Of a stretch of 60,992 nt of DNA, positions 11,073 through 59,518 are shown one piece after another (within the stretch, counting starts at the first letter, position 1; every line of letters begins with the position of its first letter). The position numbers and the translations under genes are program-made. Source of the stretch: Candidatus Vogelbacteria bacterium RIFOXYD1_FULL_51_18 (GTDB lineage Bacteria; Patescibacteriota; Minisyncoccia; Phycocordibacterales; UBA9988); the NCBI GenBank assembly GCA_001823095.1, contig MHTL01000011.1, positions 1 to 60,992 of the forward strand, in the 5' to 3' direction. The notes beneath the pieces are model-generated. The model saw only the letters and a list, made by a program, of their open reading frames with translations, was not told the origin of the DNA and searched no databases.

Positions 11073-11693
11073 ATGATGAAAACCATCAGTCATGGTCAAA
11101 CCCGCGCTCTTGTTGGGTCGTTTCTCATTGATACGCCGTGGGACGACATCGAAGTCCCCGATGATGATGACTTTGTTCAATCTTTCATCCAACTTCGGCC
11201 AGAAGAACGCGGGAGAAAGTTTGCTGATTTCATCAGAGACAGGTTCCAGATTGTTTCCACTGCGGTTAAACATGCGGTTAAACACCTCATCAATCTCGAC
11301 ACCATCCCCTTCACCCCCAACGGCTGGAGTGTAGAGGAACACCAGGAGGGAGGAATGCTTGAGTGGAACTCCAACAAAGTCTCCCTCCACCTCTCTCCCA
11401 ACCAAGAAGGGAACATATACATTAAGGGCAACGAGCTCCGCACAGAGCTCAAGGGCAAACCTGTCTTGAATGCAAACGTTCTAGACTACCTCCTTATCCA
11501 CCAAGACCTCATCCCCGAGGAGTGGAAAGACCAGAGCATCTTCTTCTGGGGCACCATCTACTGCGGCCTGGACGGCACCCTGTTTGTCCGTTACCTCTAC
11601 TGGCACGGCGGCTGGTGGCACTGGGACTTCCTCTGGCTTGGCAGCGATTGGTTCTGCCACCGCCCGGCTCTCGTTCTCGCAAGTGGGCAATGA
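11073..11693 (+). CDS. Probable DGR-type variable protein (CLec-like C-terminus)
   Basis: C-terminus FWGTIY...LFVRYLYWHGGWWHWDFLWLGSDWFCHRPALVLAS; 11561-11680 has only 10 A in 120 nt and variable codons are NNC. Confidence 0.65.
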   Translation: MMKTISHGQTRALVGSFLIDTPWDDIEVPDDDDFVQSFIQLRPEERGRKFADFIRDRFQIVSTAVKHAVKHLINLDTIPFTPNGWSVEEHQEGGMLEWNSNKVSLHLSPNQEGNIYIKGNELRTELKGKPVLNANVLDYLLIHQDLIPEEWKDQSIFFWGTIYCGLDGTLFVRYLYWHGGWWHWDFLWLGSDWFCHRPALVLASGQ

Positions 11694-54268: not shown

Positions 54269-56479
54269 ATGAAAATTAACACACTAGTGCGCTTTGGGAT
54301 ATATGGAGGATTATTCCTCGTGCCTTTTATTCCGCTTGTAGTGAGCTCGTCGCTCTTCTTCCCCTATATTACGGCAAAGAACGTTATATTCCGGGTTCTG
54401 GTGGAGCTCATTACTCTCTTGTGGGTGATAGTGGCCCTGCGCGAGCCGAAGTATCGCCCCAGACGCTCCTGGGTGCTTTACGCAGTGCTCGCAGTGAGTA
54501 CGGCTCTTACCATTGCAACAGTGACAGGAATTAATCCATACCGCAGTTTCTGGTCCAACTATGAGCGGATGGACGGACTGGTTACCAATCTGCATCTTCT
54601 TCTCTATTTTTTGGTGATAGGAAGCGTCCTGCTTACCGAGCATCTCTGGACATGGCTCCTGCGCACCTATGTTGGCGCAAGCGTCATCATGAGCTTCATC
54701 GCGCTCGCGCAGTATGCAGAGGGACTCTCTAAAGGAATTTCGGTGCGCTTGGATGCGCAACTGGGCAACGCGACGTACCTCGCGTTTTACATGTACTTTC
54801 ACATCTTCTTGGCATCGCTTCTTTTAGTGCGGCAATGGAAGTCGCTTGGCTTCCGCATTCTCTACATCTCACTCATCGCCATTGAACTCGCGGTTCTGTA
54901 TCTCACGGCGACCCGTGGCGCTCTCCTGGGACTCCTTGTGGCGATAGCAACTATTGCGGCGCTCACTTCGTATGTGTACTGGGAAGAGCTCCGAATACGG
55001 AACTATGCGCTTACCGCGCTTGGGGTGGTGTGCGCGTTTGTTATTATCTTCTATGGGTTGAAAGATTCCAACTTCATCCAGGGAAGCCCGGTGCTCTCTC
55101 GATTTGCGAACATTTCTCCGACTGAAACGACGACTGAATCGCGCTTCATTATTTGGGGGATGGCGCTTAAGGGATTTACGGAGCATCCGCTCTTCGGCTG
55201 GGGGCCGGAGAATTTCAATATCCTCTTCAACAAATACTATGAGCCGCACCTCTGGCGGCAGGAACCGTGGTTTGACCGCTCGCACAACGTCTTTCTTGAT
55301 TGGCTCGTCTCCGCGGGGCTCGTGGGTCTCGCGAGCTACCTTGCGCTCTATGTCGCTTCACTCTTTTATCTCTGGAAAAAATCTTCCCGCGAACGGATAT
55401 TCCCTGCCCATGAGGCAATCCTTTTCTCCGGCCTCTTGGCTGGATACCTATTTCAGAACATCTTCGTATTTGATAACATCGTGAGCTACATGCTCTTCTT
55501 CACCATTCTCGCGTATGTGCATGTGCGAGTTACTGCGGATGAGCATCCAATAGGAAGTAGCATCCGCCCCCATCAGGGGCTTGTGGCGGCTGGAGCAATC
55601 CTTGCGACGCTCGCGTTTGGAGCGTCGCTGTATGTGGCGAACATTAAACCAGTACTCGCAAATCGCACTCTCATCCGAGGCATTATACCGCCGGTACAGG
55701 GCGAGAAAGCAGAAGACTTCCTCAAGTCTCGCAATGATGAATTTCTCCGCGCTATCAGCTACAACACCTTCGGCACTACTGAAGCAAGAGAACAGTACTT
55801 GCAGTTTGCCGGAAGGGTCATTGGCACACAAACAATCCCAGAAGCTACCCGCATAGCAATTGGTTCAAGCGCAGTATCAGAGATGAAGAAGCAAATTACT
55901 GAATATCCAGATGATGCGCGCTACCGAATGTTCCTCGGGTCCTTTTTAAGTGCGGTAGGCGATGCGCCGGGGGCAATCGCAGAGTTTCAAAAAGCGCTTG
56001 AGCTCTCTCCGGGAAAACAGCAAATCCTGCTGGAGCTCGCGGCGGCCTATGAGCGCGCTGGCAAAAAAGTCGAGAGCAGAGAGACAATCCGCACAGCGTT
56101 TGAGCTTGACCCGACAAATCCGGAAATTGCCAAAACCCACGCCTACCTCCTCCTGTTGGAGGGAAAGCGGGCGGAAGCGGAACAGGTTCTCACGCCTCTC
56201 TATGGCAGTATTGCCGCGCCGGATCCGCGCTTTGTTAATTACTTCCTTGAGCGGAAAGAGTACCAGAATCTGCTTATCTCCATGGAGGGCGTCGCAGAGG
56301 CAAATCCCTCTGACATACAACTTCAGTATTCGCTCGCGGCGGCGTACCTGCAGGTAGGCGAGCGCGCGCAGTCTGTCACCCAACTTAAAAAAATCGGTGA
56401 ACAATTTCCTCAGCAAGCAACGCAAACGCGTGCGCTTATCGGAGAAATTGAAGCGGGACGCAATCCGATACAAGAGTAG
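54269..56479 (+). CDS. O-antigen-ligase-family membrane protein with TPR-like C-terminus, paralogue 2
   Basis: FWSNYERMDG, RLDAQLGNATY, TATRGA, GWGPENF, FDRSHN. Confidence 0.92.
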   Translation: MKINTLVRFGIYGGLFLVPFIPLVVSSSLFFPYITAKNVIFRVLVELITLLWVIVALREPKYRPRRSWVLYAVLAVSTALTIATVTGINPYRSFWSNYERMDGLVTNLHLLLYFLVIGSVLLTEHLWTWLLRTYVGASVIMSFIALAQYAEGLSKGISVRLDAQLGNATYLAFYMYFHIFLASLLLVRQWKSLGFRILYISLIAIELAVLYLTATRGALLGLLVAIATIAALTSYVYWEELRIRNYALTALGVVCAFVIIFYGLKDSNFIQGSPVLSRFANISPTETTTESRFIIWGMALKGFTEHPLFGWGPENFNILFNKYYEPHLWRQEPWFDRSHNVFLDWLVSAGLVGLASYLALYVASLFYLWKKSSRERIFPAHEAILFSGLLAGYLFQNIFVFDNIVSYMLFFTILAYVHVRVTADEHPIGSSIRPHQGLVAAGAILATLAFGASLYVANIKPVLANRTLIRGIIPPVQGEKAEDFLKSRNDEFLRAISYNTFGTTEAREQYLQFAGRVIGTQTIPEATRIAIGSSAVSEMKKQITEYPDDARYRMFLGSFLSAVGDAPGAIAEFQKALELSPGKQQILLELAAAYERAGKKVESRETIRTAFELDPTNPEIAKTHAYLLLLEGKRAEAEQVLTPLYGSIAAPDPRFVNYFLERKEYQNLLISMEGVAEANPSDIQLQYSLAAAYLQVGERAQSVTQLKKIGEQFPQQATQTRALIGEIEAGRNPIQE

Positions 56480-56513
56480 CTTGATTTTTTTCCGTACCCG
56501 TGTATACTAGAGG

Positions 56514-56706
56514 ATGTGAGTGCTTCTGTCCGCCTCGGCGGAGCGGATGCGCAACGAATATCTGCGAAAGGTCCGTTCGCTTCGGCGAGACGGGTTTTTC
56601 GTTTTTCTGCTATACTGGGCGTATCCGCGCGCTCGCGGCTGGTGACAGCACTCACATAAGATATTTGTTGGAGTTCGCATTCACCAGCCACGAGCGCGCA
56701 GAAAAT
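56514..56706 (+). ncRNA. Candidate structured non-coding RNA(s), family unrecognised
   Basis: TTGATT-16-TATACT upstream; hairpins incl. C(UUCG)G plus U-run; 19-bp stem 56627-45/56681-99 whose loop is complementary to 56514-24, 56547-51 and 56552-63. Confidence 0.45.
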
Positions 56707-56729
56707 TTTTTTCAAAAAATATTTTTTAG

Positions 56730-56738
56730 TTATCCACA
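56730..56738 (+). promoter_or_regulatory. Single perfect DnaA box
   Basis: TTATCCACA in an AT-rich tract upstream of a TATAAT promoter. Confidence 0.45.
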
Positions 56739-56846
56739 CATATCGCAAAAAAATTCTGTTTTGTAACTTTTTTGCACTATAATAGTGTAAGCACTCGCGG
56801 GAATGGTCGAACCGCAAATTCTTACTAACGAGTTTCAAACAAAATT

Positions 56847-56930
56847 ATGGCAAAGAAGAGAAAGACAGCCAAGAAGACGACAAAGAAGGCTGCCAAGAAA
56901 AAGAGCACAAAGCGCTCAAAGAAGAGGTAG
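56847..56930 (+). CDS. 27-aa Lys/Arg-rich peptide (histone H1-like)
   Basis: MAKKRKTAKKTTKKAAKKKSTKRSKKR*; own TATAAT promoter and terminator; below the ORF-track cutoff. Confidence 0.7.
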   Translation: MAKKRKTAKKTTKKAAKKKSTKRSKKR

Positions 56931-56945
56931 TATCTTTCTACCACT

Positions 56946-57002
56946 AAAATAAAATCTCCGTTCACCTCCGCCAGCCGGTGGAGCGGACGGAGATTTTATT
57001 TT
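56946..57002. terminator. Terminator after the basic peptide
   Basis: AAAATAAAATCTCCG/CGGAGATTTTATTTT. Confidence 0.8.
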
Positions 57003-57031
57003 CTGCCGACAAGTGCTAGAATGTGCACCCA

Positions 57032-59518
57032 ATGGCCTTGCTTGAACAGATATTCGGGAGCAAATCAACGCGTGCGGTGAAATCACTTGCGCCGATTGTG
57101 GCTGAAATAAACAGAGTGGAAGCGGAACTTGCGTCTTTGTCTCCGGGCGAACTCTTGGAACGGATGGCGCTCCTCAAGCAGAAACTGTCCGAGGGCTCCT
57201 CGCTGGATGAGCTTGTGGTGCCCGCCTTTGCGCTCGTGCGCGAGGCAAGCAAGCGCACGCTTGGACAGCGGCATTTTGACGTCCAACTTATGGGTGGCAT
57301 CGTTATGCATCAGGGCGGCATTGCCGAGATGAAGACGGGTGAGGGCAAGACGCTTGTGGCAACGCTCCCCGCGTGCTTAAACGCTCTCACCGGGAAAGGC
57401 GCGCACATCGTAACGGTGAATGACTACCTTGCCCGCCGCGATGCGGTGTGGATGGGGCAGATATATCATGCGCTCGGCTTGAGCGTCGGTGTGGTCACGC
57501 AAGCGGGCTCCTACCGCTACACAGCGCCTCCCAGCGCCGATGACGCCGAGAGGGATACAAGCGGCGCTTACCATATTGAACACGAGTTCCTCGTTGCCTG
57601 CACTAAGCGCGAAGCGTACGCCTGCGACGTCACCTACGGCACTAACAACGAGTACGGCTTTGACTACCTGCGCGATAATATCGCCTTCAGGCCCGAGGAT
57701 CTGGCCCAGCGCGAATACGCATACGCAATCGTGGACGAGATTGACTCCATCCTCATTGACGAAGCGCGAACGCCCCTAATCATCTCGGCGCCCTCGCAGG
57801 AATCGGAGGCGCTCTACCATACCTTTGCGCGCATCGCGACTACGCTTACTCTCGGTGAGGATTACACGGTTGATGAGAAGGCAAAGGCCATCCTCGTGAC
57901 CGACCAAGGCATCTCTCGTGCGGAAAAACTTCTCGGTGTGGGGAATATTTACACCGAACACGGCGTGAAGTACGTCCACCATCTGGAGACTGCCATCCGC
58001 GCCAAGGCGCTCTACGAGCGGGATAGGGAGTATGTGGTCGGAAACGACGGCGTGGTAATCGTTGATGAGTTTACCGGGCGTCTCCAGCCCGGCCGGCGCT
58101 GGTCGGAGGGACTCCACCAGGCGATTGAAGCGAAGGAGGGAGTCGCGGTCCAGCGCGAGAGTCGCACCGTGGCCTCCATTACCTTCCAGAATTACTTCAG
58201 AATGTATACAAAGCTCTCCGGCATGACCGGCACGGCTGCAACAAGCGCGGAAGAGTTCCGAAAGGTCTACGGCTTGGAGGTGCTCTCCATTCCATCAAAT
58301 GCGAAGATCGCTCGCGTTGACCTCCCTGACCAGATTTTTAAAAACGAGCGCGGCAAGGTGACCGCGGTGGTGCGCCGCGTACGCGAACTGCATGAGAAGG
58401 GTCAGCCCGTGCTCGTTGGCTCAATTTCTATAGAGAAAAATGAAATCTTTTCCAGCTACCTCAATAAAGAAGGAATCCCGCACCAGGTCCTCAATGCCAA
58501 GAACCACGAACGAGAGGGTGAGATTATCGCAGACGCGGGACGCAAGGGGAGTGTGGTGATTGCAACCAATATGGCCGGGCGCGGCGTTGATATTAAGCTT
58601 GGCGGCGCGCAGGCAACTAAAGAAGAGTATGAAGAGGTGAAAGCGCTCGGGGGGCTCTTTGTGCTCGGCACCGAGCGTCATGAAGCGCGGCGTATAGACA
58701 ACCAGCTGCGCGGCCGCGCAGGGCGCCAAGGAGACCCCGGCGCAACGCAGTTCTTTATTTCCATGGAGGACGAGCTCGCGCGCGTCTTCGGTCCCGGGCG
58801 CGAGCGCATCAAGGCAATCTATGACCGCTTTGGCGTTGCGGAAGATGAGCCGATGGAAGCAAGGATGATTACGCGGATTATAGAAAACGCGCAGAACAAA
58901 ATTGAGGGACTCAACTTTGACGCCCGCAAGCACGTGCTGGAGTACGACGACGTGATGAACCACCAGCGCGGCATCATGTACGTGAGGCGACGTAAGCTCC
59001 TCATTGGTAATCAAGAGTACATGGCTGAATTTGCGGACCGTCTCAAGGACCATGCGTCTACGACGGGGGAAGCAAGCGAGATAGCTTCGGTTGTAGAGAC
59101 TAAAGAGCAGGAGCTGGGAAGGGAGATGTTTTTGCAGGCAGTGCGCCAGTTGGCGCTCCAGACGCTGGATACCTTGTGGATGGAGCATCTGGAGGCGATG
59201 GATTACCTGCGCGGCTCGGTGAACCTGCGCGCCTATGGCCAGCGCGACCCCTTAGTAGAGTATAAAAAAGAGGGCCTGCGGCTCTATAAGGATTTGGAGT
59301 TCTCGCTTTTTGATACCATTTTCAAACACCTTGAACGTGTTGCTCCCGCCGCCGTGGCATTCACTCCCGTTATTGATCTCTCACAAATCAAGGAGGGCGG
59401 TCCCGAATCTGCACAGGTTTCTCCCAATGATCCTGCAAGTAGCGTGCCAAAAGTCGGTAGGAATGATCCCTGCCCGTGCGGAAGCGGGAAGAAGTACAAA
59501 AAGTGTCATGGGAAATAA
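57032..59518 (+). CDS. secA: Preprotein translocase ATPase SecA
   Basis: [71 protein letters not shown]. Confidence 0.99.

Follow-up and report, generated by a model that had tools for sequence, protein, structure and literature searches.

In the U4/U6 snRNA and OxyS-fhlA pairs, the helices that join two RNAs are nested, giving a Y-shaped junction, or come from two separate loops. The pT181 and pIP501 attenuators are cis-antisense systems that switch between alternative leader folds. Patescibacteria (the candidate phyla radiation) have tiny genomes and few regulators and are mostly uncultivable, and our literature searches returned no characterised regulatory small RNA for them. Here we describe two putative small RNAs, RNA1 and RNA2, encoded next to each other upstream of secA in a 60,992-nt stretch of Candidatus Vogelbacteria DNA (the window), together with their counterparts at related loci, which are labelled by L-numbers (L003, L004, L005, L013, L068 and so on).

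RNA1 and RNA2 resemble U4/U6 and OxyS-fhlA in that two RNAs would be joined by two separate helices flanking a hairpin in one partner. The order is crossed in RNA1–RNA2, however, with the 5' tract of RNA1 predicted to pair with the 5' tract of the RNA2 loop. The likeness to pT181 and pIP501 lies in a small RNA that binds a nascent leader hairpin ahead of an intrinsic terminator, since the RNA2 stem and its U-run form a terminator that precedes genes in some lineages; in contrast to those systems, no alternative leader folds were found for RNA2, and in L068 RNA2 faces away from the genes. Known sponge or anti-sRNA pairs include SroC-GcvB, AgvB-GcvB and ChiX with the chb spacer (reviewed in PMC8383071). 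As in these, the main property of the present pair is complementarity to the other RNA's seed, so that one could titrate the other, and both partners have independent promoters and terminators. Known sponges, however, are for the most part fragments of mRNAs or of tRNA spacers that carry a single short site, whereas RNA2 is a dedicated, adjacent and co-evolving gene with two sites in a large hairpin loop, and its loop motifs GCACUCACA and UUGGAG are conserved beyond the needs of pairing.

IS10 RNA-IN/RNA-OUT and pMV158 RNAII rely on a single contiguous cis-antisense interaction and belong to a transposon or a plasmid (PMC4485353). They share with the predicted RNA1–RNA2 complex the pairing of one RNA's 5' end or tail with the loop domain of the other, which is critical for binding, but their single contiguous contact differs from the two-site pairing in trans proposed here. 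A further parallel comes from plasmid R1, where the antisense RNA CopA and its target CopT, the repA leader, form a stable complex that is described as a four-way junction with side-by-side helices and not a full duplex (Kolb et al. 2000, as cited in PMC10798244). There, too, a small hairpin RNA binds a target hairpin through loop contacts, binding spreads to a second site with a single-stranded tail, and the target can be an mRNA leader. However, CopA is transcribed from the strand opposite CopT, to which it is complementary over its full length, whereas RNA1 and RNA2 have separate genes and two short tracts of complementarity in non-nested order, and lie on a Patescibacteria chromosome with no replication gene. 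A crossed two-site fit of this kind is unusual among known antisense systems.

Both RNA genes lie in a spacer of 543 nt that separates secA (57023/57032 onward) from the gene of a Wzy_C/TPR membrane protein (54269–56479) and also encodes a 27-aa basic peptide. The SecA proteins of the window and of Parcubacteria group bacterium GW2011_GWF2_52_12 are identical (100%), and many groundwater metagenome runs contain the locus. The promoters, tracts a, b and c, hairpins, stem and loop segments listed in the initial annotation of this DNA were all found where it had placed them, as follows.

56481–56508, forward strand: RNA1 promoter, TTGATT-16-TATACT (consensus scan)
56514–56607, forward strand: RNA1, predicted small RNA of ~90 nt (ends set by promoter and terminator)
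56514–56524, forward strand: tract a, ATGTGAGTGCT / AUGUGAGUGCU, predicted 5' end of RNA1, complementary to a' (from the sequence)
56520–56552, forward strand: RNA1 hairpin, with lower stem 56520–28/56544–52, apical stem 56529–33/56538–42 and loop CUCG
56547–51, forward strand: c, ATGCG, in the 3' strand of the RNA1 hairpin
56552–56563, forward strand: tract b, CAACGAATATCT / CAACGAAUAUCU, single-stranded linker, complementary to b' (inverted repeat)
56564–56607, forward strand: RNA1 terminator, an extended stem (56564–76/56590–602) around a C(UUCG)G hairpin, then a U-run (terminator scan)
56608–56616, forward strand: RNA2 promoter, extended -10 TGcTATACT (TGnTATACT is invariant in close relatives)
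56622–56712, forward strand: RNA2, predicted hairpin RNA of ~90 nt with a 22-bp stem, a 35-nt loop and a U-run at 56706–12 (inverted repeat; extent set by signals)
56647–56657, forward strand: a', AGCACUCACAU, in the RNA2 loop, 11/11 complementary to a
56659–56670, forward strand: b', AGAUAUUUGUUG, in the RNA2 loop, 12 pairs with b, one of them G-U
56668–56673, forward strand: UUGGAG motif in the RNA2 loop, invariant in 16/16 RNA2 sequences
56676–80, forward strand: c', in the RNA2 loop, complementary to c over 5 bp

The C(UUCG)G hairpin and the U-run of RNA1 together span 56576–56607, and the U-run is interrupted (UUUUUCGUUUU). The RNA2 unit begins ~15 nt past the RNA1 unit. Its stem (56624–45/56681–702) is 22 nt long and 91% complementary and encloses the 19-bp core that had been noticed before; the loop occupies the 35 nt at 56646–80. 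The 205-nt stretch folds better than its shuffles, with z = -6.6. Comparison of RNA1 with the loop gives non-overlapping complementary runs of 12 and 11 nt, a result reached by about 1 in 20,000 loop shuffles (P ~1e-4). The coordinates also confirm that the order a'–b' is non-nested with respect to a and b.

The pair matches no Rfam family and has no description in the literature that we searched. With Rfam 15 at the gathering threshold, the whole window yields only 16S rRNA and two tRNAs; at E<=10, region 56350–57100 yields only sub-threshold chance matches to miRNA and sRNA models, and seven homologous loci gave nothing relevant. The families covered include SRP, 6S, RNase P, riboswitches, ribozymes, retron msr and raiA, and ARAGORN, run on 56300–57100 for tRNA and tmRNA (including permuted two-piece tmRNA), found no gene. 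The earlier failure to recognise an SRP, 6S, tmRNA, RNase P, riboswitch or retron signature is thus borne out by the Infernal/Rfam and ARAGORN searches. Searched viral contigs showed no match to the locus.

Several known classes were considered individually. A retron msr-msd was rejected, as the neighbours are the Wzy_C/TPR gene, the 27-aa peptide gene and secA and no retron model matches. An IS110 bridge RNA or transposon guide RNA was rejected too, since no recombinase or nuclease gene flanks the 12 syntenic loci and the chromosomal position is fixed. A cis-antisense copy-control pair such as CopA/CopT or RNAI/RNAII does not fit genes that are adjacent and non-overlapping, with complementarity of only 10–11 and 12 nt. 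A search for riboswitch or attenuator features found terminator-like hairpins, but no alternative fold and no junction resembling a ligand pocket. As in trans-encoded sRNA pairs, each RNA has, by its sequence, its own promoter and terminator, and complementarity is kept by compensatory change.

The locus is conserved in 11 distinct relatives whose SecA proteins are about 69–100% identical to that of the window (groups at 97–100%, 81–82% and 69–70%). Throughout these close relatives, the Wzy_C/TPR gene is followed by a 550–600-nt alignable spacer and then secA, and the spacer consists of four consecutive promoter-led units: RNA1, RNA2, the basic peptide and secA (~550 bp in the window, 56481–57032). 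In the third unit, an A+T-rich tract carrying an invariant DnaA box precedes a CACTATAAT promoter, the basic-peptide gene and its terminator; the fourth has a TGCTAGAAT promoter and then secA. Both RNA promoters and both terminators are retained, including, for RNA1, the -35 TTGAY and a TGnTATnnT-type -10 in every close relative. Tracts a and b and the 42 nt around the RNA2 loop are nearly invariant, and the stems vary. Scanning metagenomes for the loop motif brought only loci of the same clade, two of them additional, and one chance match (L097).

A covariance model of RNA2, R1, which gives the window copy 110.7 bits, found five distant copies in Patescibacteria with SecA 52–65% identical (E 5e-16 to 7e-4): L003 (59.8 bits), L004 (44.2 bits), L068 (43.8 bits, minus strand), L005 (42.6 bits) and L013 (22.5 bits). 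The family is patchy: RNA2 is absent within +/-3–8 kb of secA in ~20 other Patescibacteria loci; two loci at 63–64% SecA identity, one of them Lloydbacteria, lack it within 8 kb of secA. R1 found no RNA2 in 54 secA loci (436 kb) from outside the Patescibacteria.

RNA1 is conserved in the 11 distinct relatives and in L003, L005, L013 and L068, so that an RNA1 of the same architecture lies beside RNA2 in 4/5 distant copies; the contig of the fifth, L004, ends just upstream of RNA2. The order of 5' tract, hairpin, linker and terminator is constant. In the distant copies of RNA1, a promoter is followed by a UGUGAGUGC-like tract at the 5' end, a hairpin whose sequence is unrelated, a linker and, finally, a terminator extended by A/U, and the hairpin is present in minimum free energy folds of six lineages. 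TTGACA/TTGACT-17-(-10) promoters lie upstream of RNA1 in L003, L005 and L013, and promoter spacing places tract a at the extreme 5' end of RNA1 in every case. UGUGAGUGC within a is near-invariant, as is GCACUCACA within a', distant homologues included. RNA2 is likewise preceded by TATACT in L003, in L004 and, on the minus strand, in L068. The distance between the two genes varies from 15 to 230 nt. In L003, positions 1140–1185 between them hold three tandem copies of CCTAGCGTGTACCT.

Covariation within each RNA was counted on an alignment of the 11 distinct close sequences. In the RNA2 stem, 12/22 pairs are changed on both sides, as are three pairs of the extended RNA1 terminator stem, including a change from GCGAAA/UUUCGU to GCGUAA/UUACGU. 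Over the whole structure, 94% of cells are paired, versus 32–50% when the partners are slid. The lower stem of the RNA1 hairpin reads GUGCUUCUG/CGGAUGCGC in one close group and GUGCUCAU/GUGAGUAC in the other, the changes being compensatory, and L100 has an apical insertion that preserves the pairing. Since the lower stem covaries, c can be assigned to the hairpin of RNA1 itself, as its 3' strand. The contact between c and c' that had been listed alongside those of a and b does not hold beyond the closest relatives: in the second close group, 3/5 of its positions are unpaired in 4–5 of the 11 sequences. In other lineages, the tail of the RNA2 loop shows different matches to the 3' strand of the RNA1 hairpin, all too short and irregular to be counted, and c:c' was rejected as a contact kept by conservation.

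Pairing between the two RNAs was assessed on 11 distinct sets of a, b, a' and b', aligned without gaps. The segments were hand-picked to fit the helices and the counts therefore lean towards pairing: 91% of cells are paired for a:a' plus b:b', versus 28–46% when slid. Six intermolecular pairs are changed on both sides, 4/6 of them in b:b', where one position reads U-A, C-G or A-U and another changes from A-U to G-C. The alignment of close relatives likewise contains a U-A to C-G change in b:b'. The other two are in a:a', both at helix ends. In a:a' alone, 92% of cells are paired and most changes are single substitutions that preserve a wobble pair; the helix is almost invariant, so little covariation is available from it. 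The observed intermolecular covariation score was reached by 0/500 shuffles, and in L005 one nucleotide is lost on both sides of the pairing. RNAcofold, in which pseudoknots are forbidden, returned two monomer folds; as it cannot represent loop pairing, complementarity was judged by counting complementary runs. Against loop shuffles, the runs in four other lineages have P = 0.0008–0.027. In L013, tract a has drifted (one mismatch, one G-U) and a' is unchanged, and the runs do not surpass those of shuffles (P = 0.33). We take the intermolecular signal to be real in view of the slid controls and the independent lineages.

Two rearranged loci bear on whether the tracts meet within one molecule or between two. 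In L068, the RNA2 gene is opposite in strand to RNA1 and secA, with TATACT on RNA2's strand; in L003, 230 nt lie between the genes, small tandem repeat included. It follows that any pairing of the tracts has to take place in trans, with two RNA molecules involved. We consider it likely from these comparisons that two separate small RNAs pair in trans, in an antisense-type, two-site interaction of crossed (non-nested) topology that otherwise resembles antisense kissing systems. An sRNA–antisense pair expressed from tandem promoters was among the suggestions of the initial annotation, and it is the one that the data favour: promoters and terminators are kept, the locus is conserved in the homologues collected upstream of secA, the helices covary in them, and the genes are inverted or far apart in the two loci above. 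We infer that RNA1 is a trans-acting antisense regulator and the RNA2 hairpin its dedicated RNA partner.

RNA1, with its -35/-10 promoter, and RNA2, with its extended -10 promoter, would thus be separate genes working as a pair. Two trans helices of about one turn each are predicted, 9–11 bp for a:a' and 8–12 bp for b:b'. By analogy with antisense RNAs, the exposed linker b would probably dock first, on b' at the tip of the RNA2 loop; the 5' end of RNA1 would then zip onto a' and thereby open the RNA1 hairpin at its base. The order of the tracts is non-nested, so the complex cannot be a plain duplex and would be a compact intermolecular pseudoknot, possibly with side-by-side helices around a junction or as a nicked coaxial stack. 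The tracts a' and b' are 0–4 nt apart in the RNA2 loop of every lineage; the RNA1 5' end would abut the 3' side of b on a continuous RNA2 strand, with the RNA1 hairpin bridging the far ends. Such a complex would occupy nearly all accessible single-stranded sequence of both RNAs. Simultaneous full pairing of a:a' and b:b' within a closed 35-nt loop is sterically demanding. Both RNAs, at ~90 nt, are short enough for in vitro testing or structure determination without culturing.

The surroundings of RNA2 differ between lineages. It stands alone in the window clade, in L004 and in L068, where a terminator comes after it and the following gene has a promoter of its own; in the window genome, it would therefore titrate RNA1 as a decoy or partner, or be titrated by it. 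The RNA2 model match of L005 ends at 2545 and the ATG of hpf (S30AE/HPF) is at 2548, a gap of 3 nt, and in L003 and L013 the match ends 2–3 nt before the murB start codon. Measured from the end of the stem, the gaps in L003, L005 and L013 are 12–21 nt. The stretches with RNA2 and the ORF directly after it are 2454–2913 in L005, 1239–2359 in L003 and 1149–2154 in L013. As RNA2 abuts hpf or murB in these three, it may double there as a 5' leader, in which case pairing with RNA1 could set the fate of that mRNA.

Taken further, RNA2 would be mainly a cis leader or attenuator of murB, hpf or the basic peptide and then secA; RNA1 would bind the nascent loop and alter termination, RNase III processing or translation, and the free-standing RNA2 of the window would be merely the terminated product. 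RNA2 is upstream of this gene string and on its strand in 5/6 lineages, it ends directly before hpf (L005) or murB (L003, L013) with little or no room for a promoter, and the window-clade stem followed by U7–9 is a canonical intrinsic terminator. In plasmid leaders, attenuation driven by antisense RNA is well established (see PMC4878617). However, the L068 gene points away from secA, and the basic-peptide gene has a separate conserved promoter, with the DnaA box, in L004, in L068 and in the window clade. Moreover, no alternative antiterminator fold was found, and pairing in the loop leaves the 22-bp stem intact. We regard this combined reading, terminated product included, as unlikely.

The invariant GCACUCACA and UUGGAG hint at a further partner, because they are kept even in L013, where RNA1's a has drifted. 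It is conceivable, if rather doubtful, that RNA1 and RNA2 form a two-RNA lock of a new kind, with the 5' end and internal linker of one RNA filling the other's loop as two one-turn helices, and that it serves as a lineage-wide switch placed before genes for the cell wall (murB), ribosome hibernation (hpf) and secretion (secA) in ultra-small Patescibacteria, with GCACUCACA and UUGGAG read by a further protein or conserved-RNA partner. A conserved, co-evolving sRNA pair beside murB, hpf and secA would provide a first handle on post-transcriptional control in Patescibacteria.

Separate transcription of the two RNAs has to be weighed against a single long one. With read-through past the first terminator, a, b, a' and b' could form an intramolecular pseudoknotted switch, possibly an attenuator that chooses between the first and second hairpins. 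The spacing of only ~15 nt in the window, the interrupted U-run of the first terminator (UUUUUCGUUUU) and the z-score of -6.6 for the 205-nt stretch would all suit such a transcript, and the non-nested order resembles an intramolecular pseudoknot. Nevertheless, TGnTATACT between the units is invariant, and the first terminator stem covaries as a terminator with an A-tract/U-tract extension. The distance between the units ranges from 15 to 230 nt, and with RNA2 on the opposite strand in L068 the two complementary sets cannot share one transcript. The single pseudoknotted transcript proposed initially thus misfits L068, and the conserved internal terminator and second promoter also make it very unlikely.

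In a bolder form of the lock, the RNA2 loop would serve as a splint that joins the RNA1 ends: it would hold the 5' end of RNA1 beside the 3' side of b for cutting and joining, giving a ~50-nt circular or permuted RNA or head-to-tail chains of RNA1. The close spacing of a' and b' in every lineage (0–4 nt) does make the predicted 5' end of RNA1 abut the 3' end of b, and the loop exactly complements a b-to-a junction. However, signatures of a ligase or ribozyme are lacking, and no ribozyme model of Rfam matches. Past b, moreover, RNA1 runs on into a conserved terminator hairpin, which would need removal, and bipartite antisense binding accounts for the same facts without new chemistry, so that we find this idea highly improbable.

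A DNA-level element has also been considered: the nested invertible repeats suggested initially, other repeats that recombine, a cruciform, or a portion of an origin of replication beside the DnaA box. Long inverted repeats favour it, as do, 20–30 nt downstream, a perfect DnaA box and an A+T-rich tract, but we find it scarcely credible. The 61 kb contain a single DnaA box and no GC-skew turn, unlike an oriC with its cluster of boxes and skew switch, and no recombinase or invertase gene lies nearby. Contigs assembled from four independent DNA runs on the window's own population show one arrangement and no alternative joints, although rare variants can be hidden in contigs. Substitutions preserve G-U wobble pairs, which matter to RNA and not to DNA, and the inverted RNA2 of L068 makes a and a' direct repeats in DNA.

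Further targets of the trans-acting pair were sought in the window. A cis target in secA codons 5–8 (57047–57056), a 10-nt complement of tract b, is not conserved in relatives and probably a chance match. At 11366–11378, inside the ORF at 11073–11693, there is a 13-nt perfect complement, GAACTCCAACAAA, to UUUGUUGGAGUUC of the RNA2 loop, with ~0.06 such matches expected by chance in the window. Among public RNA runs, those picked out by shared words match the peptide gene in its lysine-codon repeat and nowhere else, and none match RNA1 or RNA2 (X23, X25, X28, X31); a 4.7-kb contig of a relative among the flagged runs is probably DNA, because the source of the run is listed as metagenomic. The loci of two relatives, searched against public RNA runs, matched none.

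The DnaA box of the third unit, TTATCCACA at 56730–56738, is perfect and the sole one in the window, and boxes are also present at ~660 in L004, ~2391 in L068 and ~3624 in L092. It is invariant in all relatives and lies after the A+T-rich tract, ~40–50 nt upstream of the -10 of the basic-peptide gene; judged by this position, the site looks like a DnaA-controlled promoter rather than an origin. The 27-aa lysine-rich peptide gene (56847–56930; ~3795–3857 in L092) represents the short extreme of a family that is maintained immediately before secA, and at the same place L003 encodes a 103-aa protein with AKRKPAKRK repeats (2556–2867). Pfam gave no match for either the peptide or the 103-aa protein. 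The secA leader is apparently very short, with TGCTAGAAT at 57005–13 and the ATG at 57032.

At the other end of the window, no 23S rRNA was found after the tRNA at 1904–75. The 16S rRNA gene (within 1–1975) covers model positions 75–1533 in 1677 nt, an excess of ~220 nt that suggests an insertion in this gene.
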